Part shown: piece by piece, positions 1,411-36,330 of the stretch
Layout: the number at the start of each line of letters is the position of its first letter
How positions within the stretch are numbered: the stretch's first letter is position 1
Source: Jimgerdemannia flammicorona
Lineage: Eukaryota
Direction: 5' to 3'
Assembly: GCA_003990765.1 (NCBI GenBank)
Contig: RBNJ01000223.1
Span: forward strand, 1-36,330
DNA length: 36,330 bases
The notes under the pieces: model-generated
What the model was told of the DNA's origin: nothing
Seen by the model: only the letters and a program-made list of their open reading frames with translations
Databases searched by the model: none
Translations under genes and position numbers: made by a program

Positions 1411-1608
1411 AACAGTTATATAAAGAACTTAGAGCAGAATGTTCAGGATCCTGGAGACTTTATCTTTATCACTATTATTAAGACTAAAGGTCAGAGATAG
1501 AATATATTTGAAGGAAATAAGATCAGTGAATATTTTGTCTATTTTATATATTTTACATATATCACATATTTTGATTAGCAGAATGATATCATTATATTCA
1601 GTAGTAGT

Positions 1609-1624
1609 AAGAAGAGCAAGGAGA
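1609..1624 (+). repeat. LINE-a target-site duplication, left copy
   Basis: AAGAAGAGCAAGGAGA, repeated exactly at 7515-7530. Confidence 0.92.
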
Positions 1625-1709
1625 CATCATCTCTTTCCAGTACCATTCAGGTTACACAACCTTTGGAAGGCACTTTCAACATCATTTTCAGAGAAAAGAG
1701 ACTAACAAC

Positions 1710-3733: not shown

Positions 3734-3766
3734 AGGCTGATTGATGACATTACATATATCATCAAT

Positions 3767-6700: not shown

Positions 6701-7422
6701 ACATCGGTGATGGAATGGAATGCCAAAGGGGACCAGGCCAGGATCTGTGGCCTAGTGGTTGGCAAGGAGTTGGAATTGGCGAAGAGTGGAACTGGTATGG
6801 TGTTTGGACCTGGAGTGCTGCAGTGAGAGCATGGCTGCCACCAAAGTACTGGGTGATCTGGTGGCGTATGCTGTGGAGGAATGTTATGCTCAACTTTCAC
6901 TCAGGGCATCTTGTTATAGGGGGTTGCTTCGACTGTGAGGAGTGCTATGATATAGGGCAGGAGGGGGAGTATGTACAGATGCCAGAACATTGGCTAGGAG
7001 AGTGTGAGGTGTTAGGGGATTTTTGGCAGACAATTAGGGACTGCTTAGGGGTACAGAATAGGGGTGATGAAGTACGGGGGCAGTGGGAGGACTTGAGGGA
7101 TAGATTGGTAGGGAGAATAGAGAAGGAGTGGCTTACTTTAGGTTGGGCTTTGGCTATTTGGGTGGGGCTGGCCAGTCATTGGCTATTTGTTTTTGAGGAT
7201 GGGAGGAGACAGAGCTTGGGGGACTGGCTGCTGCGATGGCATAGGCTTATGGAAGACACCTTAACAGGCTGATGGCTGGGTTGGGGGATGCGGGGTGGTC
7301 AGAGACACTGCTTAGTGGAGAAAATTTGTAAGCAAAGTGGGGGGAGAGTTGGGGTAGTTGGTGAAAGGGTGATTTTCATTTGTGAGGAAGTAGGGAGGGG
7401 CCCCCCTGTGGGGATTGGATAG
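3767..7422 (+). pseudogene. LINE-a ORF2: AP endonuclease, reverse transcriptase and C-terminal Cys/His motif
   Basis: IFSLNVNGL, LFLLQD, GGDFN, RIDWI, LDH (APE); APGEDG, PIILL, LDQKKAYD, GVPQGDPLSP, AFADN, YLGI (RT); CFDC...EHWLGEC. Multiple stops and frameshifts. Confidence 0.93.
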
Positions 7423-7458
7423 TGGGTCAGAATGATGTATATTTACTCATAAACTGGT

Positions 7459-7481
7459 AATAAAGGCGGAGTCTAAGTGAC

Positions 7482-7516
<35 letters not shown>
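7459..7516 (+). terminator. Polyadenylation signal and poly-A tail of LINE-a
   Basis: AATAAA at 7459-7464; 32-A run at 7485-7516. Confidence 0.85.
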
Positions 7517-7530: not shown

Positions 7531-8212
7531 TGAGAGGCTCTCCAATTTATGAGGTTCTCCTCTACAAAGTAGGGAATAAAGATAGGATCTTGAGAAGATC
7601 TAATCTGGATACTGGAGCCTTGAAATACTAAGATTAATTCTTATAGGAATTAATCTAAATTATCCTAGAGAATGGAATTCCAGAACTTTTCTATCTTATC
7701 ACTTTTGAGAGTAATGATGAATTAGGCTTCTGTGGCCACTATAGCCTCCAGTATATTTATATGGTAGGCTGACAATTTCTTGAAGTCTGAGACTTTAGTA
7801 TACTCCAAGTTAGAGATTGACTAAGATATATACCTGAAGATCTGATAGATCTTTTTAGCTACCCTCAATTTATATGTATTCATAGGAGTGATATCTTATA
7901 TCTCTTGGAGACTGGTCTGAGAGAATTCCTAGTAGAGGAGGTTTCTTATTTCATATTTCTGCTATATTCAGAGGCATTTGGTAGTAATGGTGATCCTTGT
8001 TTCCATTTTATAGTGATAGAGAATAAAGTGGTAAGGGTCATCAGTACTCAGGTTGAGACTAGAAGTCCTTCTAGTATAGGTTCTCATAGCTCTTCTGATA
8101 TCTTAGAATATCTTTTCTTGAACTGAGAAGCCTTGGTAGTTCCTGAACTTTGAGGTTTCATGGGTGATAGATATTTTGTTTTTTGTTTTTTGTTTTTTGT
8201 TTTGGTAGACAT
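7531..8212 (-). pseudogene. Accessory ORF of element D (unknown function); C-terminus continues left of LINE-a
   Basis: Read-through translation LNLSTDDPYHFILYHY...KYEIRNLL...RVAKKIYQIF...NLEY..SDFKKLS aligns without gaps to the ORF at 23728-24630. KIFTDLISF near 1510-1540 matches ELFADLIDF in B. Confidence 0.75.
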
Positions 8213-8823
8213 TTTGTTTATAGTGAGTCTTTGAACTATTTTGAGATTTTATAAGTCTTGTTTGAGTTGCTGCTACTACAGTTCCTTAGTTCTTCTTTTA
8301 TATTCCTTGATATCTATCTTGTAGTTGTAATGACTTATGATTGGTCATTATTACTCATCTTATAGCCTAGATGAGTCATATTGTATTATCTTCTTATACT
8401 CTAATCTAGTAGCTTGTAAGAAAAGACTGTTTTCTGTAATAATATCACCATTCTGAGGTCACTGTTATCTTTCTCCTGAATAAGGATCTTCTCTTGAATG
8501 TCCTTATTCATTAGTTCAGTCTGAAAAATTTGCTAATCTTATAACCTCTGGCAGGGGGTCAAAAAGTGGTATTTATGGACTGGCATCTTTCTTATGTATT
8601 TTGGCATAATGGTGAAGAGTTGCTCCCTTTATATAGAGCAAGGGTCTAATTCTGATCTTGACTAATCAGTTGATAGTTCAAACTCCTCTGACTTTGAAAG
8701 TCTCATAGATGAGTGGTTACTGATGCTATATCTCTTAAAAAATAGTTCAGACAGATTGTCTGCTGGTCACAAGATATACTGTTATGATTTATAAACTAGA
8801 ACCTTATGGGTAGTCATCACATT

Positions 8824-10139
8824 TTACTTCTCTTGTATAGGTTCATAGTACTTCTTAAGTCTGTTCTTATATACTATAGTAGGCAGTATAGTCTCTGAGA
8901 GTTTTCTAAGCCAGAAGGTAGTTCTCTTGATATTCTATATATAGAAGAGTTCTTTCTATTTGGGCTCCAATTTTTATAACCATGAGGCTTTTACTATATT
9001 TGATACAGTAGAACCTTTTCTCTGATTTTAATGAGTTCTAGGGTCTTGTAATTCTTTTCTGCATTCTTTCTTATTAGCACTTGTGACTTGATGATATAAT
9101 CCTCTGCCTTCTTTCTGATTTGATATAGTCTCTGAATTTCTGAGTCAATCCATCACCAAGTTAGGTCTAGATTTGTAGCTAAGATTCCATTAGAATCTTC
9201 TTCTCTAAAGAGCAGTTCTCTTAAGATAAAGTGTATACTCTATGACTATATATCTCATAGAATAGAGAGAGCAGTTTGGGAGATAGTTATCCCAATTCTC
9301 ATATATATCTGAGATCTTGGCCAAGATATTCTTAAAGATCTTATTAGTTCTTTCTATCTATCTATTTTCTTGAGGATGATATATAGTAGTCTTGATATGC
9401 TGAATCTTGTAGTTTTGATATATTATCTTATAGAATCTATTGACAAATTCTATACTATGGTCTGTAGTAATTTGTCTTGATGTCTTATATGTAGTAGCAG
9501 ATGATTTCTCAGTATAAAAAGTCAGTAATAGAGAGAGCATTGGCTTCTTGTAATGCTCCTGCTTTTATCTATTTAGTAAAGAGATCTATAATAACTATGA
9601 TATAGTGGTTTCTTGATAGAGTTACTAGTAGTGGTCTAATGATATCTATTGCAATATAGTAGAAAGGAATAGATTCAATTCTTGATGACCTGGATATCTA
9701 GTCTTACTGATCTTATTTCTATTTTTGACACTTATCACACTCTTTGACAAATTGGTGCAGATTCTCTTCTATCTTAGACCACTATATAGTTCTTCTTGCC
9801 TTATTATATATATTGGTTCCTCTTAGGTATCCTTGTTCATATACTTCTTTCATTACTTGATACTTTTTGTATTCAAGTATAATGAGCTTTCCTCCTTTTC
9901 TGAGTATGATGTTATCTAGTTTGAATTGTTTCTAAGTCTAGTTGATAATAATAATAGTTCAGAATTCAAGGTGGTTCTGCTCAAGATAGCTAATTAATCT
10001 ATAGTATAGCTTCTTATTCATGTTAAATAGTCTTGATGAGAGTGTTTCAGGATATCCTTAAAAGTGTATCAGTATTGGCATTAGTTCTTCCTAAGTAGTA
10101 TTTGATAGTATAGTTATACTCTTGCATCTTTCTCTGCTA
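8824..10139 (-). pseudogene. Element D pol fragment: RNase H C-terminus and integrase
   Basis: KMQEYNYTIKY..G.TNANTDTL; FVKECDKCQK (H2C2 region); IAIDII...NHYIIVIIDLFTK; ITTDH; TTIYHPQEN. Heavily mutated. Confidence 0.85.
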
Positions 10140-10144
10140 TAATT

Positions 10145-11685
10145 CACATTATATACACTTTTACAACATACTTTCAAATTGTTTATTAGAGAAAGATATT
10201 AAGGCAATATCAACCAGCAAGTAAGCCAATGTATGTACTAGGTTGGGTGGACCTGGGGCCTTCGACTGGCAGTATGTCGGGAGAGGGTATGGGCTGGGGA
10301 TGGGGTCTTTCAGTGGCTCAAGTGGGCAGGACAGCTTGGGCAGTAGAGGAGGTGCTGGTGGGGGGGCTGGCGGGTGGTAGGGAAGGAGCTTTGTGGACAT
10401 GCTGAGGACTGGGGATTGGCTGATGGGAACCTGTAGTGGACAGGCAGGAGGGAAGGGAAAGCAGAAGGTTGGGGATGCTGAGGGAGCTGGGTCTTTACTG
10501 GTGGGAGGTAGAGGTAGTGGAGTAGCTGCTGGAGATAGTGGCAGGACTACTGATGGTGGCATGACAGCGAATTAGGAAAAAAAAAAAAGATGTGACAGCT
10601 GATGGCCAGAGGGGACAGGGGTCCCTGATGTGGAAGGGAGACCTGGTAGATGGTATAATGGGGCTGGTGGTGGCCCCATTGCTCAAGAAGTCAATCTCAG
10701 AGTTTGTGGCTACCTTGTGCTTCCAGGGCTTGGCAGTGATGGTGAGGATAGTCCTGGGGCTGATTTCAAAGCAGGTGGCTGGGGCAGCCTTAGTGAAGTT
10801 CTTGAAGGGTTTGGAGGAGGTTGAGGTGGGCTTTGAGGAAGTGGGCCCACTGGATGAGGCCCTGAAGACTGGAGTAGTAGTTGGGGAGGTGGTGGTCTCT
10901 ATGGTGTGATGCTTGAGGTGGGACCCCAGAGTGGTGTAGCTTCTAGTGAGAGGAGTGCCCACAGTGATTAAGGAGGAGACTAGGAGGAGGGTGGAGGAGG
11001 TGATGATAGAGTATGGTGATGTGGTGGACATTGGCTTTCAGATGTGGGAGGGGATAATGTTTCAGATGGGTAATGTTGATGTCAGGATTTAGCTGGCAGG
11101 GAAGGAGGCCACAGGGAAGACGAGTAACTGACCCTCAGTACTGATGTGGGGGGTATTTGTCTGTAAGGTGTCAAGGGTGAAGGGGAGTGAAGAGGAGGAG
11201 AAGGAGGACTTGTTGGAGGTACTGGAGGAGTTGAGTGGTGCTGTGGAGAGGAGGGCAAAAGCCTGGAAGCTATATGAGGAGTTGATGCATCTGGAGGTTG
11301 TGGATGGGAAGCATGTCTGTACTGACAGGAAGCAGTGGGAGTAGGCCCAGGGACACAAGAGGCAGAGGGAGCTGTTGGCTAGTATAACAGGAGGGGGAGA
11401 GAAGAAGTTGGTTGGAGCTGAGAAGAATAAAGGTATCAAAGCCAGCATCTGGACTAGTGAAGGAGGAGAGAAGGTGGAGGCAAATGAGAAAGAGGCTGGG
11501 AAGATGCTGGGCAAGGATCCATATGCTGATGGTACCTTTGAAGTCTGGAAGTAGGAGTTGGATAGCACCCCCCCCCCACTTATCAGGAGGGGCTCAGTTG
11601 GGAAGAGAGGAGCAGTGGAGGATGTGCAGATGCAGGGGGCCCAGCGAGTTCACTTTGGGGTCCCAGATGTGGTGAAAGGGGGCCA
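10145..11685 (+). mobile_element. LINE-b 5' part (5'UTR and ORF1 pseudogene), a diverged relative of LINE-a
   Basis: GDLVDGIMGLVVAPLLKKSI...FLKGLEEVEVGFEEV and CKVSRVKGSEEEEKEDLLEVLEE match LINE-a ORF1. The start is approximate. Confidence 0.88.
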
Positions 11686-13693
11686 TGTAAGAGGGTTGCT
11701 TTTTAGAGTAACTGTTACATAGTTCTGGAAGAGTTTTCTGGAAGTTCTAGATATTCTGGAAGACTGTTTTCTTATGGTCAAGATCAATTTCATATGGAGT
11801 ACATCCTCTACACTTATTGATTTCAAGATCAGATTGACGTCTCAACCTAAGTTCTCTTTTGGACTAGTTCTGGATATTTAGGATTTTCTGTATTTCAGGA
11901 AGTTCAAGAAACTAAGACCAGTTTAGTTGAATTGGTGTATTGCTGCAGACAATACCCAATTAGGAAATTTCGTGACAGGGTTAGGAGTGGGACCTAATGG
12001 GGAGTAGATTTACTTAAGGGTGGTTTGTGGGTTATTTGAATAGATTTATTTGCTATTCATGATATTGCTATACTAGGAGTAGTTGTGTGAAGAGATATTG
12101 TGGGGAAGTATTCAGGAATGTTCTTGTGTGTTTGAGTCTGAGATTCTGAGTTCTGGGGGAGGGGGTATTTATACTAGTGAGGGGCTATCTGGACTATGCT
12201 AGATATGGATGTAGCACTAAGTGCTTTGCTGAGTTGGAATGCAGTCACATAGTACAAGTGTGATCTGACATGTCAAGAGATCATCTGACTGCTGAGTCAG
12301 TTCACAGTCACATCGTATAAAGCTAATCTAACTATACTATGACTGCTAGGCTATTTATGGGTTTAGGTGCTGTCTGGATAGTCCTCAATGACATCACCAT
12401 TGATGACATCATCTCTGATGAAGTAGTCATCTAGAAAGAGTGGTTCGCAGATTACTTCTTCTTGTTCACTGAGGTAATAATACATTGGAACTTCGTCTCC
12501 ATCCCACAAGATGGTGTCATCTGTCTCATATGCTGGATAAGGTGTTGGTGGGTGAAGGAGGGGTACATCATCTTCACTTTCATCGGATTCGCTGTCTGCA
12601 TACCTTCTGTAGGTTACAGCACTATGAGTTGCGGGGTTATAGTAAGCTGGTGGCTGTGGTTCATGTTGCTCGTACTCAGGTGGTAGAGTGGTTGGTTCAA
12701 TCTTGAGGGTTGTCTGGAGGTACAGGTTATGTTCTCCAGTCTCTTCATTGTAGTTGAAGTAATTGGGAGTGTTATGAATTGTTATAAGTTCATCGGCAAG
12801 ATTGGCGGTGTGATCAGGGTTGGCAGAGATCCTTGGCTAGAGGTCATGTCGACATCAGAGAGATCATTGTCTTCTGCTTCATCTTCATCGAAGTAGATTA
12901 TATTATAGATGTTCTTCATGGTATATCCAACTTGGGGCATTTGCAGGATATGATCATTGGGGTGTGGGAAGGTTCTGTCTGTGGTTTCGACATACTCAAG
13001 GTACTTGTGGTTGAGTTCTTGTATCATGTCATCGATTTGGCCATAGGACAGGGTAGCAATCATTTCGCTGGTAGTGACTCAGAGGTAGGGAATAATGGTA
13101 CTGTACTCATAGAAGAGTTCTCGATATTTGCGGGTGATGAGCTTCTGGTGTTGAGACATCTGGGTAATATCTGTATCATGGTGGTGTTCGACCATGTCTT
13201 CCAGGAGGCAGCTGATCTGGTAGTAGCTTGAGATTTGTCTGATTCAGTAGGCCTTGCTAAGTATGTTCAGAGTATTCTATCAGGCTTCCATGAAGTAGAG
13301 GGGTGCTAGGCTATGGATATTCATAAGGGGCAGAGGGGGTGTGGCTCGGTTGACAATGGTATTTCAAATATCAGCACGAATATAGGTATAGATCTCAGTG
13401 GTCATGTTTGTATGTTTGGAAGTTGTAGTTGTTATTTGTTTTGGTTCTCTGATTTGACGTATCTCGGTGCTCAGTATATATGCATTTGGTCCTGATTGGT
13501 AAGATTCTGTTTGTGTAGATCTTGTATTCTGTGACTTTATATTGACTCAGCTTTGTGTGCTGTAACTTTGGTTTGACTCAGCTTCATGATCAAGCAGGTG
13601 ATTTCCAGATTTGTTCAGATGTCATATGTGATTTCAGTGGCTTGTTCAGAGGGTGATGTGTAATTTCGGTAGCTTGGAGGTTGTGCACTTACA
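11686..13693 (-). repeat. 3' LTR of element A (2008 bp)
   Basis: Direct repeat of 19999-22061 with a 55-bp deletion near 12770; TG...CA termini. Confidence 0.95.
12363..13405 (-). pseudogene. LTR-encoded accessory ORF of element A, 3' LTR copy, frameshifted by the 55-bp deletion
   Basis: Homologous to 20676-21773; includes track ORF 12782-13063. Confidence 0.7.
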
Positions 13694-13710
13694 ACACTCC
13701 CCTTCTTAGC
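13694..13710 (-). promoter_or_regulatory. Polypurine tract of element A
   Basis: GCTAAGAAGGGGAGTGT immediately before the 3' LTR on the minus strand. Confidence 0.85.
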
Positions 13711-13905
13711 TTTCGACATCCTCATTGGGGCCTTCTAATTTTGTTCAGTGATACAGGGAGAATAGGCTTACTTTCAGTTTTGCCCTTTTTCCAGAGAGTC
13801 AGTATTCTTGTCTTGTTTTACTGAGTTCTTGGTTTGGTTTGCAATAATTATAATGTTCAGGAGGATAATATATAGTATGTATAGATAGGTGTGGAATATT
13901 TGATT

Positions 13906-16900
13906 CTAGTTATTCAAGGAATCATATTCCTAAACTAGGTCAGTAGCATTCTAGAGATTGGTCTTGAGTTCCCAGGTTGCATCATAGATTGGGTAACCTT
14001 TCTATTTGACAAGGTACTCAGGATGGTTCTTGTTGCCACGTTTGTTGAGGATTTGTTCAACTTCATACTCTTCTTGGTCATTAATAATGACAGGTGCAGG
14101 TGGTTTGGTGGTCCGGTTTGGAAATAGCTCATCATCATTCTCATTATATTGCTTGAGACGTTGGATATAAAAGACTGGGTAAATCTTAATGGTGTCTGGT
14201 AGTACCAGTTTGTAGGAGGTAGGAGAGACTTGTGTAATGACTTCAAATGGTCCAATGAACTTGCTGTTCAGCTTTGTAGATGGTCTGTGCTTGAGGTTGT
14301 CAACTTGATATCCTCTGATGTCTAGTAGAACTTTTTCTCCAATATCAAAGGTTTCTTCTTGGCGGTATTGATTAACATACTGTGACTGTTGTTCTTGAGC
14401 TCGTGATAAATTCTCAATGGCAATCTGGCTTAGATTGTGCATTTGGAGTAAGAATTCTTCAATAGCTTCGACTGTGGAGGGTTCCTCAGTGGTTCAGATA
14501 AGTGTCAAAGGGGTGTTTGGGTTTTGTCCAGTGTTGGCGAAGAATGGGGCCATTCCAAGAGAGGCTTGCTTGCTATTGTTATAGACAAACTCAACTATGG
14601 TGAGGTGTTCATACCAGTCATCTTATCTGTAGGAAATATAGTTCCTTAGCATTTATTCCAGAGTTCAGTTCATTCTTTCAGTTTGGCCATCGGTTTCAGG
14701 GTGAAAGGCTGTGGATAGTGCAAGTTTCATTCTAAGGTATACATGAAGGGCTTTCCAAAAATGGCTGGTGAATTTCAGATCTCAGTCACTAACAATAATC
14801 TTGGGAAGACCATGATAGCGGAAGATGTTGTCAAACAAGAGTGTGGCTATATCTGATGCTGTTGCAGTAGTGGTAGTAGGCACAAAGTGGGCTTGTTTGC
14901 TGAGATAGTTCACAAAGACAACAATTGCATCTTTCCCATTCTTGGTTTGGGATAGTTGTACAATGAAGTCTATAGAGATTTGTTCCCAATTCGTAGATAG
15001 TACTGGGATAGAGTGAAGTAAGCCAGGTTTTGCTAGTGTTGAGGACTTGTTTTGTTGGCAAGTATCACAGGAAGTGATATAGGTCTTGAGCTGATCTGCC
15101 ATGCGGGGCCAATAGAAGTTTCGGGAGATAACTTCATAACATTTATCAAATCCTAAATATCCAGCTGTAGGGGCATCATGACATTCGAATAGGATAGTCC
15201 TTCAGAGGTCTCAGTTGTTTGGGACATACAGTCTGTCCTTATAGTAGATAGCATTATCCTTCAGTTGGTATTGATGATACTGTGTATACTTATCTGCATT
15301 GTCACTATTCAGGATTTCTTGCAGTGCTTGAGCTTCCTTATCATTGACACATGCTGTGATAATTTGTTCCATGATGGAGTTTGTAACCAAGGTGAGAGTT
15401 TGGATAACCTCTTCGATTGGTGGTCTAGACATTGTATCAGCAACAATATTTTCCTTACCAGGGTGGTACTGGATTTTATAGTCAAAGTTGGTGAGGACTT
15501 TCATCTATCTGGCTTGCTTTCGAGAAAGAGTAGCCTGTGTCTTGATGTTGACTAATGACTTGTGGTCGGTCAATACAGTAAAGTGTACTCCTTCTAGGTA
15601 GGGTTGCCATTTAATCAGAGTGTCCACAATGGCTAGCATCTCCTTCTCGTGAGTTACATAGTTGATTTCAGCATCATTGAACTTATGGGAGTGATAGGCC
15701 ACAGGGTGTCCTTCTTGCATGAGTACTGCTCCAAGGGCTAGGTCAGAGGCATCAGTGGTAACTTTATATGGCAGTGTAGGGTTTGCCACTTGAAGTACTG
15801 GAGTGGTTATCAGGGCATCCTTTAGTGCTTGAAAGGTGGTATCTTACTCAGGTCCCCAAGTTACAAGATTGTTGAAGTCTTTTTCTTATTTTATGGTTCA
15901 GGGTTGTTCTTATTTCTTGTTATGCTTGGTCATTTGAGTGAGAGTGGTAGCAATTTTAGCAAAGTTGGCAACAAATCACCTGTAATAGTTTGCTAATCCC
16001 AGGAATGACTGCAGGTCTTTCAGCTTCTTGGGTCTGGGCCAATTATTGATTGCAGAAATTTTGCTGGGGTCTACTTTGATTCCATTTGGAGTAACAATGT
16101 GTCTAAGGAATTGAATTTCTTTCAGGAGAAATTCACACTTGCTGAGTTTTGCAAAGAGTCGGTTTTCTCAGAGTTTCAGTAGTACTAGTTCAAGGTGTTC
16201 AAGATGTTCCTCCAGGGTTTTGCTGAAGACTAGGATGTTATCAATGTAGACAACAATGAATTTGTCTAGGTATGGATGCAGAATGGTATTCATCAGTATC
16301 TGGAAGGTTGCTGGAGCATTAGTTAAGCCAAAGAGCATAACTAGGAACTCAAAGTGTCCATAGCGAGTTCGGAAGACTGTCTTGTAGATGTCTTCTTTCA
16401 TGGCAATTTGCTAGTAACCATTTTGCAGATCAAAGGAGCTCATGAATTATGGGTTAGTAAGTCTATCGAATATTTCATCGATCCTTAGTAGTGGGCAATA
16501 GTTCTTGATGGTCTGTTCATTGAGATCATGGTAGTCAATACACATTCACAGGTCTCCTCCTTTCTTGACAACAAAGAGGACTGGTGCACCATAAGGTAAT
16601 ATGCTGGGTCTGATGAATCCTTGTTCTAGGAGTTCATCAATTTCCTTCTTGAGTATATTAATTTCTCTCAGAGACATGTGGTAGATTGACTTGAAGGCTG
16701 GTTTGGCATCTGGGATAGTCTTGATAGCATGGTCTACTACTCATTTGAGAGGTAGGCCTTTTGGGAGCTTCTTTAGAAATATGTCCTGGAATTTCTGGAG
16801 TAGTGGTCTGACATGGCTGTCAACTTTGGAAAAATCTTCTTCAGAGTTCTCAGGTTCTCCTTTGGATGGACAGATGGAGATGGCGAAGAGAGTGCATTTC

Positions 16901-19900
16901 TTGGCCAATTTCTTAAGTTGTAGCTTGTTGATATGGGTAATCTTTGGTCCAGGATCACTCGAACTGAGTGGGTCCTTTTCACCTTATAGTTTGAAGTTGT
17001 GGCGTACTTTCTTGATGGTCAGAGAATGGTTTACCCAATCAATCATAGGGTTCTCTTATTTCAACCATGGGGTTCCAAGGATAATTTCGTTGTCAGGGAG
17101 TGGTATGATCTGAAGGGTAACATATACTCAGTAGTTGCCAATTTGGAAGGGTAGATTGCGGACTTCTTTGCTAATAACATGTGAGGTTCCATCAGTTGTA
17201 GCAACTGCTTGAGTTTGCTATACTGGAGAGGTGAAGACCTTAAGTTTGTTGGCTGTCTCTTCACTGATAAAGTTACCCGAGGCACCACTGTCTATCATGA
17301 TCTTGACAGGTGCTTGATTGACAAAAGCCTTAAGTGTAAGCAGTTTGTCTGATCCAATGGTGGTGATTTCAGTTGTTTGAGCTTTCCTTCTATTGGTTCT
17401 TCTTTGAGCCAGTTCATTGACACAAGAGAAGCAATCATCAATCATTCGGGAAGAGTATATTCCAATGCCATAGAGACATCGGCCACTTGGTACATATCCA
17501 TCTTTAATTTTCTTGTAGAATTGTTCTTCTTTACCATGGTAGGTTGGGCTGGGGCCTTGTTTGATGAGCCAAATCCTTTGGATTCTCTGATGGTGGGCAA
17601 TAGTTCAGGGACTTTCTTGACTGTCAGGGTTGACTCAATTTTTTCGAATAGGATCTGGGTGATGCAGAAATCAATAGGGATCTTGAAGAGTATCCAACTG
17701 TGGTTTCTGATGAGGACAATAATTTCGCCTGTATAATCCTTGTCAATGACTCCTCCTTCTACTGGGAGTCCTTTTAATGCTAGGCTGCTACGATAGCATA
17801 TTCTTCCAATATGTCCTTTGGGGATTTGGATGCTGATTCCTGTGTAGACTTGTTTGACTTCTCAGTTGGAAACTGTAGCTTCTTTGGCTGCATACAGGTC
17901 ATATCCAGCTGCTTTCTGACTTCCTTTGGTTGGGGCCTTAGCAGTTTGTCTTAACTTGATAAAGTCTAGTGTTCTGGTGGTCAGGTTGTTGAGGTGGTGA
18001 AGAGTGGTAACAGTTGCTCTTGTTGCTGTTCAGGGTTTTTGGTTAGGGCAGACACTGGCCATGTGTCCTGTCTTTCAGCAATAGAAGCATGCTCCGCTTC
18101 TTCGAAGTTCATTCCTTTTACCTTCAGTAAGTTTCTTGAAGGTACTTGGCTGAGTGGGTTCATGATTTCTGGGTGTCCAGGAGGTGGATGTAGAGGGAGC
18201 TCGAGATGCTTCATGCTTAGGTTCTTCTTTCTTGGTCCAAGTCTTTTCCTTATTATTGAATTGTCTTCGAGGCAGAATTGGTCTGGCTGTTAGGATTCAC
18301 TTGACCATGGTCTTGATTCTTGCCAGGCACCATTGTTAGTGATCACAACCAGCTGGGCAGCCTTGTTCTCGGATTTTTCTAGTGAGCTATTCAGGTAAGG
18401 CATTGAATAAATGGTCTGCTCTTGTATCATTTTGTACTTCATCATTGGTGATATATCCTAGGCCAACAGTGTTCAGGAGTGACTTGAGTTTTGTACAGAA
18501 GGTTTCGAATTCTTCTTTGCCATATACATCGAATTTGAGGTTGTGGAGTTTTACTCGAGATTCAGCAATCATGGTTTCACTACGATATTGAGCAATCATG
18601 AGTTGTTTGAGTCCAGGGGCTGCAGGATGGGCTCCATATCCTAAGGCATTGTTTGCTACATTCTGAGCAACTACTGCAGGTTGGGTATCCCATGTGAGGA
18701 GTTTTTTAGGAAGAGTTTGCCACCATTCTTCAGCAGGTCTTCAGAAGAATATAACAACTTGGCAGACATAGGCTGTAGTGGTAGCAAAGAGTTGTTCCAG
18801 AGTGTGGTCTTGATTGTTTGTCAGAACGCAGTCAGCAACTCACTCATTGGTCCATTGATTGGCTTTGAAGTTGGTGTCAACTACACTAATGAAGCTTTGG
18901 ACTTCTTGTGCAGTACCATTAAAGGTAGGTAGGCTCAGATTTTTGGTAGGTTGGGTCTGTTCAGCTAAGGCAGTAATGGTTGCTACCATTATGGCTATCT
19001 GGGCTGTGAGGTCAAGAATCTGTTGGTTCGCCATATTGTTTACTGGAGGTGGTTGGGCCACTGGTAGTGGTGTTACTGGTACTACTTGAGGTACTGGTGC
19101 AGAGTGTGATGGGGTTCTTTAAGTCTGGGTAAGTTATTGAAGTAGTAGTTGTGGATCTGGAGTAAGGGCTTGATAGATAGCTGTTTGTTGTTGTATAGGT
19201 GTATTCTGTTCTGATGGGAGTGTGTCTCCTTTGGTGGTATATCTGGGATTGAATTCAGTGAGATACTCCTCCTCCTCTTCTTCGGTTTGGTCCCCATGTA
19301 ATTGAGTTTGCTTGGTGTTGAAGTAGATAGAATCAGTTGTATATCTGATTTCAGAGGGACTTAATTCAAGGTCAAGTTTAGGTTCGGTGTTGGTTTCGGA
19401 TTCAGGTAGGGCTGTAGCAGAGCCTGCTTCAGGTTCAGGGTCAGGTAGTTGATGAAGGGTTTCTCTCACTTCTTCTTTAAGAATATGACAGGCCTTGCTA
19501 TTCTGGAATCAGTAGTATAATACAGTCTTGGTCCTGGTATGATGAAAGTTGGTAGAGTTGAGCCACTTGGCTATAGAGGCTTGGGCTTCATGAGGAACTA
19601 AGGCTAGAAAGACTGCTGCTGGTTGTCCTAGGTTGCTCAGATTTGTGGAGCTGACAAAACTCTTATTGAGAAGAGTAAAGAAGGCTTCAATAAGACCTTC
19701 TTCATCTTGACTTACTGGGTGTAGTGTAAGGAGCTTAGTGAATAGAGTTTCGCCTATTTGCTGATTGAACTGAAGTACTTCTTTCTTTGAATAAAGTTTG
19801 TCCCACTTATTGCAGGTGTGGAGGTCAAATTGTCCTTATATATCAGATTCAATTCTCTCCAGATTATCAGATAGTTTGGGTAAATTCCAGTTCAGAGGTT

Positions 19901-19960
19901 GGGCTTTATACCAACTTGTAGGAATTCTCAGAAGGGTTTGTAGTGGAGTGAGGAAGCATC
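13906..19960 (-). pseudogene. Element A gag-pol polyprotein
   Basis: LPTFNG (gag); [89 protein letters not shown]...EYLVK.KGY...ATWE. Ends are approximate. Confidence 0.92.
17560..17970 (-). pseudogene. dut: Trimeric dUTPase domain in element A
   Basis: AAGYDLY, GRICYRSSL, GGVIDKDYTGEI, ITQILF, RESKGFGSS; in frame with the Gag zinc knuckle. Confidence 0.93.
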
Positions 19961-19980
19961 TTGAAGCAGAATTGGATTGT

Positions 19981-19995
19981 AACCCGCTGCTACCA
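19981..19995 (-). promoter_or_regulatory. Primer-binding site of element A, probably for initiator tRNA-Met
   Basis: TGGTAGCAGCGGGTT lies 3 nt after the 5' LTR; TGGTAGC complements the 3' end of eukaryotic tRNA-iMet. Confidence 0.8.
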
Positions 19996-19998
19996 AGT

Positions 19999-22061
19999 TG
20001 TAAGAGGGTTGCTTTTTAGGGTAACTATTATGTAGTTCTGGAAGGGTTTTCTGGAAGTTCTAGATATTCTGGAAGACCATTTTCTTATGGTCAAGATCAA
20101 TTTCATATGGAGTATGTCCTCTACACTTGTTGATTTCAAGATCAGGTTGACATCTTAACCTAAGTCCTCTTTTGGACTAGTTCTAGATGTTCAGGATTTT
20201 CCGTATTTCAGGAAGTTCGAGAAACTAAGACCAGCTTAGTTGAATCAGTGTATTGCTGCAGACAATACCCAATTAGGAAATTTCGTGATGGAGTTAGGAG
20301 TGGGACCTAATGGGGAGTGGATTTACTTAAGGGTAGTTTGTGGGTTATTTGAATAGATTTATTCGCTATTCATGATATTGCTATACTAGGAGTAGTTGTA
20401 TAAAGAGATATTGTGGAGAAGTATTCAGGAATGTTCTTATGTGTTTGAGTCTGAGATTCTGAGTTCTGGGGGAGGGGGTATTTATACTAATAAGGGGCTA
20501 TCTGGACTATATTAGATATGGATGTAGCACTAAGTGCTTTGCTGAGTCAGAATGCAGTCACATAGTACAAGTATGATCTGACATGTCAAGAGATTGTCTG
20601 ACTGCTGAGTCAGTTCACAGTCACGTTATACAAAGCTAATCTAACTATACTATGACTGCTAGGCTATTTATGAGTTTAGGTGCTGTCTGGATAGTCCTCG
20701 ATGACATCACCATCAATGACATCATCTCTGATGAAGTAGTCATCTAGGAAGAGTGGTTTGTGGATTACTTCTCCTTGTTTGCTAAGGTAATAATATATTG
20801 GAACTTCATCTCCATCCCACAAGATGGCGTCATCTGTCTCATATGCTGGGTAAGGTGTTGGTGGGTGAAGGAGGGATGCATCATCTTCACTTTCATCAGA
20901 TTCACTGTCTGCATACCTTCTGTAGGTTACAGTACTATGAGTCACAGAGTTATAGTAAGCTGGTGGCTGTGGTTCATATCACTCGTACTCAGGTAGTAGA
21001 GTGGTTGGTTCAATCTCGAGGGTTGTCTAGAGATATAGGTTGTATTCTCCAGTCTCTTCATTGTAGTTGAAGTAATCAGAGGTGAATGCAGGTTGGTATT
21101 CATGCCAGTGGTCATTGTCCCAATAAGTCTCGTATGCTATTATAAATTGTTATAAGTTCATCAGCAAGGTTGGCGGTATGATCAGGGTTGGCAGAGATCC
21201 TTGGCTAGAGGTCATGTCAGCATCAGAGGGATCATTTTCTTCTGCTTTATCTTCATCGAAGTGGATTATATTGTAGATGTCCTTCATGGTATATCCAACT
21301 TGGGGCATTTGCAGGATATGATCATTGGGGTATGGGAAGGTTCTGTCTGTAGTTTCGACATACTTGAGGTACTTGTGGTTGAGTTCTTATATTATATCAT
21401 CGATTTGGCTATAGGACAGGGTAGCAACCATTTTGCTGGTAGTGACTCAGAGGCGGGGAATAATGGTACTGTACTTGTAGAAGAGTTCTCAATGTTTGTG
21501 GGTGATGAGCTTCTGGTGTTGAGATATCTGGGTAATGTCTGTATCATGGTGGTGTTCGACCATATCTTCCAGGAGGTGGCCGATCTGGTAGTAGCTTGAG
21601 ATTTGTCCAATTCAGTGGGCCTCACTAAGTATGTTCAGAGTATTCCATTGGGCTTCCACAAAGTAGAGGGGTGCTAGGCTATGGATATTCATAAGGGGCA
21701 GAGGGGGTGTGGCTCGGTTGACAATGACATTCCAAATGTCAGTGCGGATATGGGTATAGATCTCAGTAGTCATATTTGTGTGTTTGGAAGTTGTAGTTAT
21801 TGTTTGTTTTGGTTCTCTGATTCGACGTGTCTCGGTGCTCAGTATATATGCATTTGGTCCTGATTGGTAAGATTCCATTTGTATAGATCTTGTGTTCTGT
21901 GACTTCGTATTGACTCAGCTTTGTGTGCTGTGACTTTGGTTTGACTCAGCTTCGTGATCAAGCAGGTGATTTCCAGATTTGTTCAGATGTCGTGTGTGAT
22001 TTCAGTGGCTTGTTCAGAGGGTGATATGTAATTTCGGTGGCTTGGAGGTTGTGTGCTTATA
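19999..22061 (-). repeat. 5' LTR of element A (2063 bp)
   Basis: Direct repeat of 11686-13693; terminal CA mutated to TA; followed by GGCCA. Confidence 0.95.
20676..21773 (-). pseudogene. LTR-encoded accessory ORF of element A, ~365 codons, unknown function
   Basis: Track ORFs 21612-21878 and 20676-20945 share a frame. At least one internal TGA is CGA in the other LTR, and the other stops fit C>T changes. The ATG at 21773 follows a TATATA motif and an A/C-rich leader. Confidence 0.75.
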
Positions 22062-22909
22062 GGCCAAGTGGTGGCAGTTGGTGAGGATGAGCAAGGTGAT
22101 GGATAACCTTGCGGCAGAGACATTGGGGGAAGTGGACCTATGTATAATATCTGAGAAGTATTGAGTGTGGGTTCTATGTAGAGATAGAGTGATGGAGGTA
22201 CTGAAGGTGGAGATTCTTGCAATCTTCCTAGAGGAAGAGGGATATGAGGTTGATGAGGTTAGAAAGGTGGAGCTGGGGGTTATCGCTAGTGAGCAGGCTG
22301 TCTACTATTGGGCAGAGCATCATGGTTTGCAGCTCTGGTAGGAGGCCTGTCTGGAGTATCATGAGGACTTTGAGAAGAGAGAAGATGGGGTGATGGTGGA
22401 ACTTCTGGGAGGGTTGGAGGCATGGGAGGCTGGTGAAAGAGAGCTAGATGCTGAACATGACTTGAACTTGGTACAGGAGGAGCCAAATGTGAACTTGTAG
22501 AGGATGGGATCACTATATAACATTTTTCTTATGAGCAGTACAACCAATATTTTCTCTTTGAATATAAATAGATTAAGGGGAGCAGGGCAGCATAAGAACA
22601 TTTTTACTTGGCTCAAGGGATTGGAGGCTGATCTCTTTTTACTACAGGATGTATAGTGTAAGGATGAGGACAATTGGGTAGAGTGGACTAGGGAATGGAG
22701 TGGGGCTACTGCTTGGTTTAGAAAAGTGGTAATTCTAGTGAGGAAGGGCAGAGGAGATTTGGAGGGAATCAGGAGCTGGGGGGATCGATTGGCCTGGGGA
22801 GATTGGCATCAGCCAGGGTGGGAGTTAGTGAGAGTTGGCTCTTGCTACTGTCCAGTAGTTAAGGGCGAGAGGACTGTATGAATTAAGGAGCTGCTGAAGG
22901 AGGGTGTTC
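22062..22909 (+). mobile_element. LINE-b continuation (ORF1 end and ORF2 endonuclease start), cut by element B
   Basis: Resumes colinearly with LINE-a at ~3175; ORF1 stop at 22500; MSSTTNIFSLNI starts at 22531; LEADLFLLQD; VGSCYCP. Confidence 0.9.
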
Positions 22910-23716
22910 TGTAATAACTCTCACTTCTACCCCTCTCTTATCCTTAGAATAATTAGGGAAGTAGACTATTACTTAGAGACTTAGTATACAATATATACCA
23001 AGAAGCCTTCAGTTTGAGGAAGCACTTGCTTATAAGTAAGTATAGTGGCAGTGCCTTATCTTTCAAAGGTCTTTCTTAGATTTGCCTTCTATTTCAAAGG
23101 TCTTTCTCTTATGCCCTATTTCGAGGGTCTTGTTCTTTGCTATACACAGACTGAATTCGTCTTGGAATTCAGGTTCAATGGGTTTACTTAAGTCTTTGGG
23201 GATTTATATACTGGTCTCAGTTCTGGCAGAAGTTAGCTAGACTTCTGGAGTTTAGTCAGAAACACTAGAGTCACTTAGATGTCATTACTAAGACTCAGGG
23301 GAATGTGTGTGTGTGGGGGAGACTTGATTCTTATATCAAGGACTGAACTAAAACTACTTTATTTCGGATGGAAACTGGGGGGTATTTATACAAGTTGGTC
23401 CATGATTTCTGACTAAGTATGAGTGACTAATTTGGTAACTATAATGAGGTTTGTGATCATGACCTTTGTTAGGTGATTTTTGGTAAAGAATATCTTTGTG
23501 ATCAGGACCTCAATTACTAGGCAATGATCAGCAGCTATGGCAACTGTTGCTGCAGTGCCAGTTGTCAGGGATAAGCTGGATATCATTTTCCACGTCATTT
23601 CACATTGTTTATTCATTATTCATATGCCGCACTCGATCGTATGATGATATCATCGCCAGGTCATGTGATCATTTGTCTCATCGCATCCTATCTGTTTGCT
23701 CATTCATTCTATTACA
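22910..23716 (-). repeat. 3' LTR of element B
   Basis: Direct repeat of 31266-32079. Confidence 0.95.
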
Positions 23717-23729
23717 TCCTTCCCCCCTT
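23717..23729 (-). promoter_or_regulatory. Polypurine tract of element B
   Basis: AAGGGGGGAAGGA abuts the LTR. Confidence 0.9.
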
Positions 23730-24630
23730 AAAAATCAATATCCTTGTTGATTGAGAAATTGAGAACCAGGGGAGAGAAAGGTGGGGAATCCTCCTCAGGA
23801 TTGTTACCCTCTTTTGCAGGGGGAGTGGTTACTGGTGGTTTGCTATCCAGAATGGAGAAGTCAATGAGGTCTGCAAATAGTTCTTGTATTGGAATAGGTG
23901 CTGGTATAGGGGTTCTCTATCTGATGTAGTTGGGGCCATCCAAGTAGAGCTCTTGATCTTCATACCTGGGAATATCCATTTGGATAGGTGGTCCTTCAAA
24001 GAGGACAGAGAGACCTTGGAGCCATTGGTCAGGGTTGTTATTCAGGAGAGGGCTCCAGTAGGGTTCACAGTCAGTAGACTTGAGGGCAATTCAGGAGTTG
24101 GCTTCTTGAGCGACCTTGACTTCTAGGGCATCGACCTCAGGGAAAGAGAGGTTCTGGAAGTCCTTCAGTTGTATATAGTTGAGGTTGAGGATCATGAAGG
24201 ATGTATGGCATATGATTTGATGGACCTTCTTGGCAAGTCTTTGCTCGTGCCTATCTAGGTGGGTTCAATCAGAGACTTGGTCCATGGGCAGGTCCCTTAC
24301 TCATTGGAGGAGTTGATGGCCAATCTCATATTCATGCCAGATCTCTAGGCGGCTGGTGGCAAGATAGGCTCTTTCAATGACTTCATAGTGGTTGAGGACA
24401 TAGTGTCCTAGGTCCTGGCTGGAGAGGTTAAGGGCCTCTGAGCAGTGGTTCCTTCCTTGGATGGCAACCTGGATGTGTCCAAAGAGGCGGTCAACCTGGC
24501 TTAGGAGGGGCTGGCTACAGCAGGCAGTTTGGCAGCAGATGGCAGGTATTCTTGTCTTGTCTTTTCTTTGTAAGGAAAGGAGGATGAGAGTTGCAGGGTA
24601 TTCTTGCCTTGGGTATTTATACTTATTCAT
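23728..24630 (-). pseudogene. Accessory ORF of element B between pol and the PPT, ~270-300 codons
   Basis: One frame with 4 internal stops (3 TGA, 1 TAG) ends with TAA at the PPT. GTATAAATACCC at 24611-24622 suggests the true start is just downstream of 24610. Confidence 0.8.
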
Positions 24631-31265: not shown

Positions 31266-32079
31266 TGTAATAACTCTCACTTCTACCCCTCTCTTATCCT
31301 TAGAATAATTAGGGAAGTAGACTATTACTTAGGGACTTAGTATACAATGTATACCAAGAAGCCTTCAGTTTGAGGAAGTGCTCACTTTAAGTAATTGTAG
31401 TGGCAGTGCCTTATCTTTCAAAGGTCTTTCTCTGGGTTGCCTTCTATTTCAAAGGTCTTTCTCTTGTGCCCTATTTCGAGGGTCTCGTTCTTTGGTGTGC
31501 ACAGACTGAATTTGCCTTGGAATTCAGATTCAATGGGTTAACTTAAGTCTTTGGGGATTTATATACCGGTCTCAGTTCTGGCAGAAGTTAGCTAGGCTTC
31601 TGGAGTTTAGTCAGAAACACTAGAGTCACTTAGATATCATTACTAAGACTCAGGGGAATGTGTGTGTGTGGGGGGAGACTTGATTCTTATATCAAGGACT
31701 GAACTAAAACTGCTTTATTTCGGATGGAAAACTGGGGGGTATTTATACAAGTTGGTCCATGATTTCTGACTAAGTATGAGTGACTAATTTGGTAACTATA
31801 ATGAGGTTTGTGATCGCAACCTTTGTCAGGTGGGTTTTGATAAAGAATATCTTTATGATCAGGACCTCAATTACTAGGCAATGATCAGTAGCTGTGGCAA
31901 CTGTTGCTGCAGTATCAGTTGTCAGGGATAAGCTAAATATCATTTTCCGCATCATTCGTTTGCATTGTTTAACACTCATTATTCATATGCCATGCTTGAT
32001 TGTATGATGATGTCATTGCCGGGTCATGTGATCGTTTGTCTTGTCATGTCCCATCTATTTGCTCGTTCATTCTATTATA
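31266..32079 (-). repeat. 5' LTR of element B
   Basis: Direct repeat of 22910-23716; terminal CA mutated to TA. Confidence 0.95.
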
Positions 32080-35000
32080 CCAGACCCCCACCAAGGATGA
32101 GAAGAAGCAGCTCCATGAAAAGGGATTGTGCTTTATCTGCAAGAAGGCAGGACACATCTCATTCAGATGCCCTGAGAAGAAGAACAAAACAGGCAAACCC
32201 AGTAACCAGAACATTACTATTATTGGAGAAGGTCCAGGAAAGAAAAACCCTGAGAATGTCATCAAAATACAGAAGATATGGTACAAGGCTACTATTCCCA
32301 CTAAGGCTCACCCAATCAATGCTGGATATGATCTCTACAGCAGCCAAGACCTCACTATTCCACCAAGTACCAATGCTATAGTGCAAACAGGAATTACAAT
32401 GCAAGCTTCCAAAGGAACATACATCTGCCTTGCTGAGTGAAGCAGCCTAGCCAAAGAGTTCAACATTAGACTAGGAGGAGGAGTAGTTGACCAAGGATTT
32501 ACTGGCAAAATCCATATCATCTTACAAAATTTTGGAAACATATCATTTGAAGTCAAAACAGGCCAAAGGATTGCCCAAGCAATCATTGAAGAAATCCGTC
32601 AAGATCTCACCATTGAAGAAGTTCCCGATCTCTCCCAGACAGATCATGGTAAGAAAGGGTTTGGATCTACCAACAAACCTCCTAGTCAAAAGGTCACTAC
32701 CATGAAATAAGATGATGAAAACTGATATAAGAGAATTGCAGATAGTTATGCACCATGTGGATGATGCCCTCATTCTATTTGAATGTACTGTATGGAACAT
32801 GTTGGTGAATACCATGCATGCCTCTCCAAAGTTTTCAAAATTCAATCTAAGAAATGCCAAGCCCAACAGACTGAGGAACCCAAACAAAACAACCCTTCTT
32901 GTGAAGGATGGGGAGAAACTGATTTCGAGGAGACTGACAGCAATTGGGACAATAATGAAGATGAAGAGCTCAATACCATCAAGAAGGAGGACAGTTGCAT
33001 CAAGTTCACAGGCCAAGTCCACAGATAAAATGTCAATATCTTGCTTGATAGTGGTGCTACTGGAAACTATATCAGCACTAAGACAGTCAATAGGATTGGA
33101 GCCCGAAGCAGACCAACTACCAAGAAAAGAAGTGTTACCTTTAGTGATAGAAAAACTGCACCATTGACCAAGATCTGCGAAGATCTTGGCTCAAGATTGG
33201 CAAATATCAAGAGAAGTTAGACTTCAGCATTGTAGACCTCTCAGGACAAGATATTATCTTAGAAAAAGCCTGGTTGACCCAGTACAATCCAGACATCAAC
33301 TGGAGAACCAACAAGGTTAACCTGACCCATGAAGACAGAAAGATCACCCTGATACCACAGGAAGGTACAAACCACCAAGGAATCGAAATCATCTCTGCCA
33401 TTCAAATGAAGAGACTCTCTCGAAAAAAGGGAAACACCTACTTCATCTGTATAGTATAAGAAGTCACTGAAGCTACAAGTAGCCCAATTCCAACAGAAGC
33501 TCAAGAACTGTTTGAAGAATTCCAAAATATATTCCAAGACCCCCAAGGACTTCCACCTAAGTGCCAAATCCAACATGGAATTGATCTCATTTCAGGATCT
33601 GAACCCCCATACAAGAGTATCTACCAACTGGCCCAACCTGAGCTCAAGACCCTCAAGGATGAATTGACCAAACTACTGGCCCAAGGATATATTGAACCCA
33701 GCTGCTCTCCATTTGGAGCCCCCATTCTATTTGTCAAAAAGAAGAATGGCTCTCTGTGAATGTGTTTTGACTACAGAGCCCTCAATAAGATCACTATCAA
33801 GAACCAGTATGCCTTACCTAGGATTGATGAGTTGCTATACTAAATCTTTAAGGCCAAGACCTTTTCTCTACTGGATTTGTAAAATGGCTACCACCAGATT
33901 CTCATTGATGAGAAGGACATTGAGAATACAGCTTTCTGAACATAGTTTGGGCACTACCCATTCCAAGTCATGCCTTTTGGATTGACCAATACACCAGCAA
34001 CATTCCAGTATCTGATGAATGACATCTTTGGACCACTTCTCAAAATCTGTATTCTTGTGTATATTGATGATATACTAATCTACAGTGAGACAGTAGAGCT
34101 ACACTACACCTACCTCAGACAGGTACTGACCCTTCTGCGAGAACACCAGCTCTATGCCAAGATGAGCAAGTTTAAGTTCTATCAAGACTAGATTGAGTAC
34201 TTAGGATACATCATCTCTGCTGAAGGTATCAATGTGGACCCCCAAAAGGTATCAGTCCTTAAGGATATCCTTATCCCTACTACCCTTAAGCTACTCCAGC
34301 ACTTTCTGGATATTGCCAGTTATTACTGAAGGTTTATCTAAGGATACTCTGCTATTGCAGCCCCACTGACCAGCCTGGCCCACAAAGGAGTGAACATCAA
34401 AACTGAATGGACCCCCAAATGCATCCTGACTAGGGGCCATCTCAAGAGACTCCTTACTGAGGCCCCAGTGCTAATTGCACCTGACTCTATCAGACCATTC
34501 ACTCTGATCATAGATGCCTCTGACATTGCCATTGGGGCAGTGCTCAGCCAAGAAGACTGCCCAGTGGCCTACCTTTCTCAAAAGCTCAAGCCAGGGGAAA
34601 CCCAGTATACTACCTATGAGAAGGAACTCCTGGCTATTGTCACTGCACTTTAGGAATAGTACCATTTCCTCCTAGGACAGCCATTTGTGGCCTACACTGA
34701 TCACTATGCATTGCAGTATATTCATACACAGCTTATGCTGACCCACAGACAAGCCCGCTGGATAGAAATCATTGCCAACTTTGATATGGAAATCAAGTAT
34801 ATTTCAGGCAAAACCAACTGTATGGCTGATGGTTTCTCCAGGTACATGGAAGATGAACTTGTTTTCATGATTGAAGTAATTGAAGATCTTACCCAAATGA
34901 TCAAGGATGGCTATCAGCAAGACAGCCCTCTGACAAATTTCCTTCAATTCTGCCAAGACCCAGAGGCCAAGATTCCAGAACCCATGAGGTAAATGGCCAA

Positions 35001-36321: not shown

Positions 36322-36330
36322 TTTTTTTTT
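36322..36330 (-). repeat. Poly-T run interrupting the chromodomain of C; probable tail of a minus-strand LINE
   Basis: Homology to B stops abruptly at 36321 and is replaced by T9 running to the window edge. Confidence 0.5.

Follow-up and report, generated by a model that had tools for sequence, protein, structure and literature searches.

The 36,330-nucleotide contig RBNJ01000223.1 of the Jimgerdemannia flammicorona assembly GCA_003990765.1, hereafter referred to as the window, is a nest of retroelements. One of these, element A, lies on the minus strand and carries a reading frame in each of its long terminal repeats (LTRs). We gave the name ORF3 to this accessory gene and to its homologues, a probable one of which lies just outside the LTR of a second retrotransposon in the window, element B. 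The explanation that we consider best, and likely overall, is that ORF3 is an accessory gene, now decayed in element A, which would have come to lie within the LTR through the placement of the polypurine tract (PPT), would have a promoter of its own, and would encode a regulatory product. The coordinates of the features are collected in Table 1.

In the 5′ LTR of element A, the minus strand holds at 21878..20676 a single 401-codon frame that runs from ATG to TAA without any frameshift. A preliminary description of this DNA had placed a gene of about 365 codons at 20676..21878. The length was right when counted from the ATG at 21773, which is codon 36 of the frame and the supported start. The start at 21878 was not, because the same position reads ACA in the 3′ LTR, giving a CA/TG pair typical of CpG decay. 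Thus, the ATG at 21878 is probably a mutation artefact rather than an ancestral start, and the 35 codons upstream of 21773 are left without coding support. Similarly, the gene had been described as in frame in the 5′ LTR, and it is indeed free of frameshifts but not open, as it contains seven in-frame stops (in the numbering of the 401-codon frame, TGA at 89, 130, 144, and 300, TAA at 164 and 243, and TAG at 284). The 365-codon ORF3 is wholly internal to the LTR and occupies 1098 of its 2063 bp (53%), in agreement with the earlier statement that a single frame makes up more than half of the repeat. The 3′ copy had been said to be broken by a 55-bp deletion, and this was confirmed. The missing base pairs correspond to about 21139-21085 of the 5′ copy, and because a relative of ORF3, the protein P0001, keeps the residues lost there, we read the difference as a deletion in the 3′ copy, which shifts its frame.

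Element A is a Ty3/Gypsy chromovirus with a dUTPase domain ahead of its protease, as follows from its Pfam domain order, which is the same in element B (dUTPase, then RVP_2, RVT_1, RT_RNaseH, Integrase_H2C2, rve, SH3_Tf2-1, and Chromo). Its LTRs end in TGTAAG...CTTACA, forming a 6-bp terminal inverted repeat; the 5-bp target-site duplication (TSD) TGGCC is present at both flanks, and the LTR pair shows 89.7% identity over 2061 aligned columns. The copy is dead, and its frame from protease to chromodomain contains 25 stops in 1145 codons. Both the main TATA box of the LTR and an AATAAA signal are downstream of the ORF3 stop codon, which places ORF3 in U3. With the U3/R limits inferred from the position of that TATA box, the order is LTR edge (22061), ORF3 (21773-20676), main TATA box (20486), and AATAAA (20363). 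The PPT is found 283 nt upstream of the ORF3 ATG, and ORF3 is thus not placed between pol and the PPT. Together, the LTR boundaries, the TSD, the primer-binding site (PBS), the PPT, and the main TATA box downstream of the frame bear out the proposal that the gene sits in U3 and is copied together with the LTR; its location inside the LTR is as good as certain.

Over the stretch covered by ORF3, the other two sense frames contain 17 and 37 stops, compared with seven in the ORF3 frame, and the remainder of the LTR contains 17-19 stops per 225 codons in all frames. A search with an ORF3 profile against 1.84 billion representative proteins (E<=1e-3) returned three matches (P0001, P0002, and P0003). 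P0002 (128 amino acids) is open, spans codons 1-128 counted from the ATG at 21773, and begins with the same MTTEIY; it has arginine at all three stop positions within its span, where the stops correspond to CGA-to-TGA changes. P0001 (247 amino acids) is also open and spans codons 115-363, with the same end point as ORF3 of element A. The two share 61% identity and 80% similarity, and their alignment has two gaps, each exactly two codons long. P0001 carries glutamine at the remaining four stop positions. All seven stops are a single C-to-T step away from an arginine or glutamine codon that is intact in the relatives. The third match, P0003, is a 436-amino acid tandem-repeat protein that aligned over 36 profile positions (E 5.9e-6), and we discounted it as matching by chance or at the level of a motif. 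The motif that it repeats, LSFDKIADFIEKLNNGY, is similar to LSYSQIDDIIxELNHKY of ORF3, probably by chance.

The replacements that separate ORF3 of element A from P0001 were conservative beyond the neutral expectation, as 51% of the 90 were BLOSUM62-positive, with a mean score of +0.32. In neutral simulations (n=600) evolved to an identity equal to that of this pair, the positive share averaged 30-32% and reached 47% at most, that is, none of the 600 attained the observed value; nine of the 600 were still free of stops. The density of stops in ORF3 (7 in 365 codons) matches that of the pol frame of element A, as expected if both were intact at or near the time of insertion and then decayed jointly. 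Differences between the 5′ and the 3′ LTR were unbiased over codon positions 1/2/3 (15/11/15 and 23/11/25), which is expected for decay after insertion and is uninformative on earlier selection. These comparisons indicate that ORF3 is almost certainly a genuine gene, as the preliminary description had it, that it has decayed in element A, and that, judging from the pattern of replacements, it was formerly under purifying selection. A scan of the A-type alignment against metagenome, genome, and viral contigs gave pattern matches and no true relatives.

Between the LTRs of element A, 158 of the 2003 aligned positions are different, 157 of them by a transition. In the LTR pairs of both elements A and B, the changes concentrate at CpG and CpA and affect hardly any CpT sites (2% and 1%). 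Such a signature is of the deamination type, either methylation driven or resembling repeat-induced point mutation. From the CA/TG, CG/TG, and CG/CA pairs, we estimate that about four in five CpGs would have decayed in each LTR copy of element A. Because most CpGs have decayed, two TGA stops that both LTRs share at CGA codons are unremarkable parallel changes. As in element A, the differences between the LTRs of element B are almost only transitions. The sense strands of the elements are strongly A-rich and G-poor.

In element B, a spacer of ~650 bp with 8-11 stops per 216 codons separates the chromodomain from ORF3. The B-type homologues P0004-P0009 are all open, and their start methionine aligns with the ATA now found at the start of the element B gene. 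The JGI metagenome contig L001 carries an intact ORF3 of 291 codons with the same TAA-PPT-TGTAAT junction as element B. Over 264 codons, element B and L001 gave a dN/dS of 0.17, with 76/59/128 differences at codon positions 1/2/3, compared with 1.29 and 1.33 when the same DNA was read in two shifted frames. This codon-level pattern indicates that the B-type ORF3 is under clear purifying selection. A third ORF3 copy in the window belongs to a decayed element, E, in which no purine tract was found directly past the ORF3 stop.

The gag-pol regions of elements A and B align end to end in the same order, with 30-52% amino acid identity, up to the end of the chromodomain, and in both elements ORF3 occupies the same slot, past the chromodomain and ahead of the main TATA box. 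Comparison of the A-type profile with four B-type sequences by hhalign gave a score of 30.6 (P 0.0016), which none of 160 column shuffles reached. With eight B-type sequences, the score was 38.5 (P 1.2e-4) over 122 columns, aligning residues 5-131 of A with 25-149 of B; none of 193 shuffles reached it, as they averaged 15.2 (sd 2.8) and peaked at 24.8, and the score of the reversed control was 17.1. In addition, a hidden Markov model of the B family matched ORF3 of element A at 21809-21393 (i-E 0.0037). The two types share an acidic C-terminal third, and short RDDVIDxDVI-like motifs were seen by eye at the A-type end and in the tail of the P0006 subfamily. These profile comparisons make it very likely that the A-type and B-type ORF3 are distantly homologous, and they uphold the earlier claim that the homologue in element B ends at the PPT, outside the LTR, a layout that L001 repeats. 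The family has about ten members among billions of predicted proteins and is an orphan protein family under selection. Because the non-coding flanks of ORF3 in element A show no similarity to those of element B and L001 beyond a 14-mer at the main TATA box, the PPT sites of A and B cannot be mapped onto each other.

U3 is the stretch between the PPT and R, as established by the mechanism of LTR formation. Because U3 is whatever lies from the PPT to R, ORF3 is duplicated in both LTRs of element A. We propose that ORF3 belongs to Ty3/Gypsy chromoviruses with a dUTPase domain, whose genomic RNA would have the same order in A and B, namely, gag, dUTPase-pol, ORF3, main TATA box, and R. A PPT directly past the ORF3 stop keeps the gene internal in element B and L001, and the LTR at about 0.8 kb. 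In element A, plus-strand priming at the PPT 283 nt upstream of the ORF3 start brings ORF3 and its TATA-like box into U3, and reverse transcription then copies both into each LTR, giving repeats of 2 kb. Since the PPT follows the gene in one of two related elements and precedes its homologue in the other, the LTR boundary can apparently cross a whole gene while the gene order of the RNA is kept. The arrangement of element B, with ORF3 ahead of the PPT, may be the older one, as suggested by the fact that extra open reading frames (ORFs) usually lie ahead of the PPT. Parts of the window were found, in small shares, in seven public runs (six soil metagenomes and one labelled 'organism A'), none of them an RNA run. 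The junction of a PPT with the start of an A-type LTR occurs in soil metagenome contigs, two from run X4 and one from run X6, and the PPT of the X6 contig differs in sequence from that of element A. Thousands of short contigs with 80-99% likeness, from four runs, cover the A-type LTR.

TATA-like boxes precede the ORF3 start at -75 in both LTRs of element A, at -72 in element B, and at -80 in L001. In element B, the 12-mer GTATAAATACCC is found both at the box upstream of ORF3 and at the TATA box of the LTR. ORF3 may be transcribed from this predicted promoter, with use of the LTR poly(A) signal; we regard the case for a promoter of its own as evenly balanced. If the TATA-like box is a promoter, the A-type LTR would be a self-contained ORF3 unit with promoter, ORF, and poly(A) signal.

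The predicted ORF3 proteins carry their negative charge mainly in the last third, alongside aromatic residues. Their isoelectric points are 4.05-4.94 in the seven proteins that include the C-terminal third and 6.28 in P0002, an N-terminal fragment. The highest 19-residue Kyte-Doolittle mean was 0.57-1.59 in all eight proteins, which reveals no membrane segment, and because a hydrophobic segment is lacking, the proteins are not env-like. In Pfam, ORF3 of element A matched no family at E<=0.01, including those of sag, nef, and bel; none of eight B-type members matched at this threshold, and one gave ATG5_HBR at E 0.088. No match to the ORF3 proteins was found in the PDB. In the ESM Atlas, the model of P0001 had a predicted local distance difference test score (pLDDT) of 0.39 and no look-alike, and P0005 had no match at >=0.9. 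AlphaFold2, run on an alignment of eight B-type sequences, predicted helices up to residue 190 and left the chain unstructured past residue 219 (pLDDT 42.7). We speculate that the product could combine a helical N terminus with an acidic, aromatic-rich, disordered C-terminal third. Tentatively, and with some doubt, it may be a regulatory or adaptor protein, for which an acidic transactivator of the element's promoters is our best guess by analogy, though one that we hold with low confidence. The fuller scheme, in which a Tas-like acidic transactivator has its own promoter and the PPT move made all LTRs of the A lineage, even solo ones, autonomous cassettes acting in trans, is unlikely as a whole.

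Several observations weigh against the explanation proposed here or favor other ones. Because one antisense frame over the ORF3 stretch also contains only seven stops, stop counts alone leave the question of a gene unsettled. This equally open frame, the seven stops of the 5′ copy, the six stops and the frameshift of the 3′ copy, and the lack of a known family match would fit a stretch of non-coding U3 that is open by chance or as a relic. We find such an origin scarcely credible in view of open relatives at 61% identity with conservative replacements and whole-codon gaps, the derivation of all seven stops from the relatives' arginine or glutamine codons, the many stops in every frame of the rest of the LTR, and the low dN/dS of the homologous B-type gene. 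The constraint on the A-type gene is, in turn, read from two predicted proteins, which as products of gene callers are open by definition and thus subject to ascertainment bias. P0001 starts at a methionine aligned with codon 115, and the N-terminal third of ORF3 may not be coding in every lineage. One TAA is common to both LTRs at a codon that is glutamine in P0001 and is not a CpG site; because of this shared stop, ORF3 may have been broken already when this copy of element A inserted and hence not needed in cis. The similarity between the A-type and B-type ORF3 is invisible to BLAST, and its hhalign probability with eight B-type sequences is only 55%. The A-type frame could accordingly be a captured fragment of a host or foreign gene, unrelated to ORF3 of element B, with a profile likeness due to shared helical and acidic composition, the more so as column shuffling erases local composition patterns and may understate chance scores. 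This origin is nevertheless very improbable. The alignment is collinear from near both N termini, the score rose by the addition of four B-type sequences and stayed well above the reversed control, and the slot is identical in elements whose gag-pol aligns throughout. Moreover, all relatives with readable surroundings (element B, L001, and element E) are inside retrotransposons, and no cellular family in Pfam or the PDB matched ORF3.

The long LTR itself could be a one-off product, in which the plus strand started at an accidental upstream purine run in a single reverse-transcription event, rather than a trait of a lineage. The window contains a single full A-type element, and a second full-length copy with both LTRs was not seen. 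We consider this quite improbable, because three metagenome contigs join a PPT to the A-type LTR start, the variant PPT in X6 marks another copy, thousands of similar short contigs cover the LTR, and integrase used the new LTR end, with its well-formed 6-bp terminal inverted repeat, to give a clean 5-bp TSD. With respect to the promoter, A-rich DNA readily yields TATA-like words, and the match in position was spotted after the fact. The proposed function is read from the composition of the proteins, for which searches of Pfam, the PDB, and the ESM Atlas gave no match, and the AlphaFold2 model is poor, which makes its calls of helix and disorder weak. A gene of the same identity and layout might instead counter host silencing or restriction, or serve as an adaptor of the particle or of nuclear import. 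Acidic disordered tails with short conserved motifs are typical of adaptor proteins too, and the heavy mutation of the elements by the host, apparent from the excess of transitions between LTRs, makes counter-defence plausible. Such a role is a serious though less than probable alternative; the present results do not separate it from that of a transactivator.

Genes in or overlapping the U3 of the LTR are a hallmark of a few complex retroviruses; the sag gene of mouse mammary tumor virus (MMTV) is located in U3, and lentiviral nef overlaps it. ORF3 of element A resembles both in its position in U3, its duplication in the provirus, and its location at the 3′ end of the genomic RNA. In contrast to them, it belongs to an env-less Ty3/Gypsy chromovirus, lies in U3 as a whole ORF together with its candidate promoter, and shows no family relation to either. 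In foamy viruses, as described in PMC3798896, Tas is made from an internal promoter, regarded there as unique among retroviruses, and activates both promoters. The tas/bel genes are accessory genes past the structural genes, with a second internal TATA promoter whose box is like that of the LTR (PMC3798896), a layout similar to that of ORF3. Foamy viruses differ in being vertebrate retroviruses with env, no homology to them was found, and the internal promoter of ORF3 is a prediction from sequence.

Extra ORFs after pol are described for plant, rotifer, and fungal LTR retrotransposons in PMC5408684 and PMC2864245; the former presents bdelloid rotifer ORF3s as typically separate transcription units, and the latter marks an 'add. 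ORF' between pol and the 3′ LTR of fungal chromoviruses. Element B, L001, and probably element E are similar in carrying an extra ORF past pol and ahead of the PPT. Element A differs from the bdelloid elements in that its ORF is inside the LTR, and its protein falls outside the env-like, GDSL, DEDDy, TM, and CC types of ORF3 that are named there (PMC5408684). The bdelloid elements are depicted there as lacking a chromodomain and as having dUTPase between protease and reverse transcriptase (PMC5408684). The fungal survey reports that dUTPase varies in position among the chromoviruses that carry it, such as PosPlaTy3 of Postia placenta, and can lie at the N terminus of Pol (PMC2864245). By description, not by sequence, such elements resemble element A in having a chromodomain past integrase and a dUTPase domain, which in element A lies at the N terminus of Pol, ahead of protease, and the domain layout of both A and B fits the descriptions of basidiomycete chromoviruses given there (PMC2864245). 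A keyword-based literature search of limited coverage, which does not imply a wider absence, found no report of a complete ORF inside a Ty3/Gypsy LTR. A shift of the boundary would be a simple way for LTRs to become very long and for a gene to be duplicated. It follows from the structure that solo LTRs could keep the element's ORF3, although none was observed. If the cassette scheme is true, the cassette would outlive the element, supply a factor in trans to the whole family, and let the gene survive LTR-LTR recombination, and it would represent a retrotransposon counterpart of complex-retrovirus regulation.

Table 1. Features of elements A, B, and E in the window (all on the minus strand).
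Feature	Position	Strand	Remarks
Element A 5′ LTR	19999..22061	-	2063 bp, from LTR pair alignment; TSD TGGCC at 22062-22066
Element A 3′ LTR	11686..13693	-	2008 bp; TSD TGGCC at 11681-11685
Element A PBS, TGGTAGCAGCGGG	19983..19995	-	3 nt past the 5′ LTR
Element A internal region	13924..19982	-	gag (CCHC), dUTPase, protease, reverse transcriptase, RNase H, integrase, chromodomain
Element A PPT, GAAAGCTAAGAAGGGGAG	13697..13714	-	3 nt ahead of the 3′ LTR; upstream of ORF3
ORF3 copy, element A 5′ LTR	20676..21773	-	365 codons, ATG 21773 to TAA 20678-20676, 7 in-frame stops
ORF3 copy, element A 3′ LTR	12366..13405	-	55-bp deletion after 12773 shifts the frame; 6 stops of its own
TATATA, candidate ORF3 promoter	21843..21848	-	75 nt upstream of the ORF3 ATG; 3′ LTR counterpart at 13480
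Element A main LTR TATA box, GTATAAATACCCCC	20479..20486	-	14-mer identical in the element B LTR; downstream of ORF3, at the U3 end
Element A AATAAA	20363-20358	-	downstream of the main LTR TATA box
Element B 5′ LTR	31266-32079	-	
Element B 3′ LTR	22910..23716	-	807 bp
Element B ORF3 homologue	23728..24549	-	273 codons and a TAA, interrupted by 4 in-frame stops; ATA in place of the start codon
Element B PPT, GGGGGGAAGGA	23717..23727	-	directly past the ORF3 TAA (23730-23728), directly ahead of the 3′ LTR
TATAAAT box, element B	24621-24615	-	72 nt upstream of the ORF3 start
Third ORF3 copy, decayed element E	7533..8168	-	P0006-P0009 subfamily, i-E 1e-80; cut by a LINE; tail at ~1435-1551

Element E, at 7533-10100 (-) and about 1435-1640 (-), is a fourth, badly decayed chromovirus in which an integrase zinc domain can be recognized. 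Its ORF3 is interrupted by a long interspersed nuclear element (LINE), and the duplicated target reads LLALL on both sides of the insertion. The LINE, at 1640-7516 (+), is a non-LTR retrotransposon with an APE endonuclease and a reverse transcriptase (Pfam), and related fragments occur at 10508-11379 and 22085-22871. G is very frequent in the sense strand of the LINE (G 37%, C 14%), which terminates in a poly(A) tail of 33 nt at 7484-7516. A further copy of this LINE family harbors the insertion of element A, and element B abuts one end of that copy without a matching TSD.

The LTR ends of element B are present, and its flanks, TCTGG and GAACA, do not match as a TSD. Adjoining its 5′ LTR, 32080-36322 (+) holds a 5′-truncated, inverted B-type copy that is 90% identical to 29506-25263. 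The inverted copy and the TSD mismatch suggest a rearrangement between copies rather than a simple insertion.

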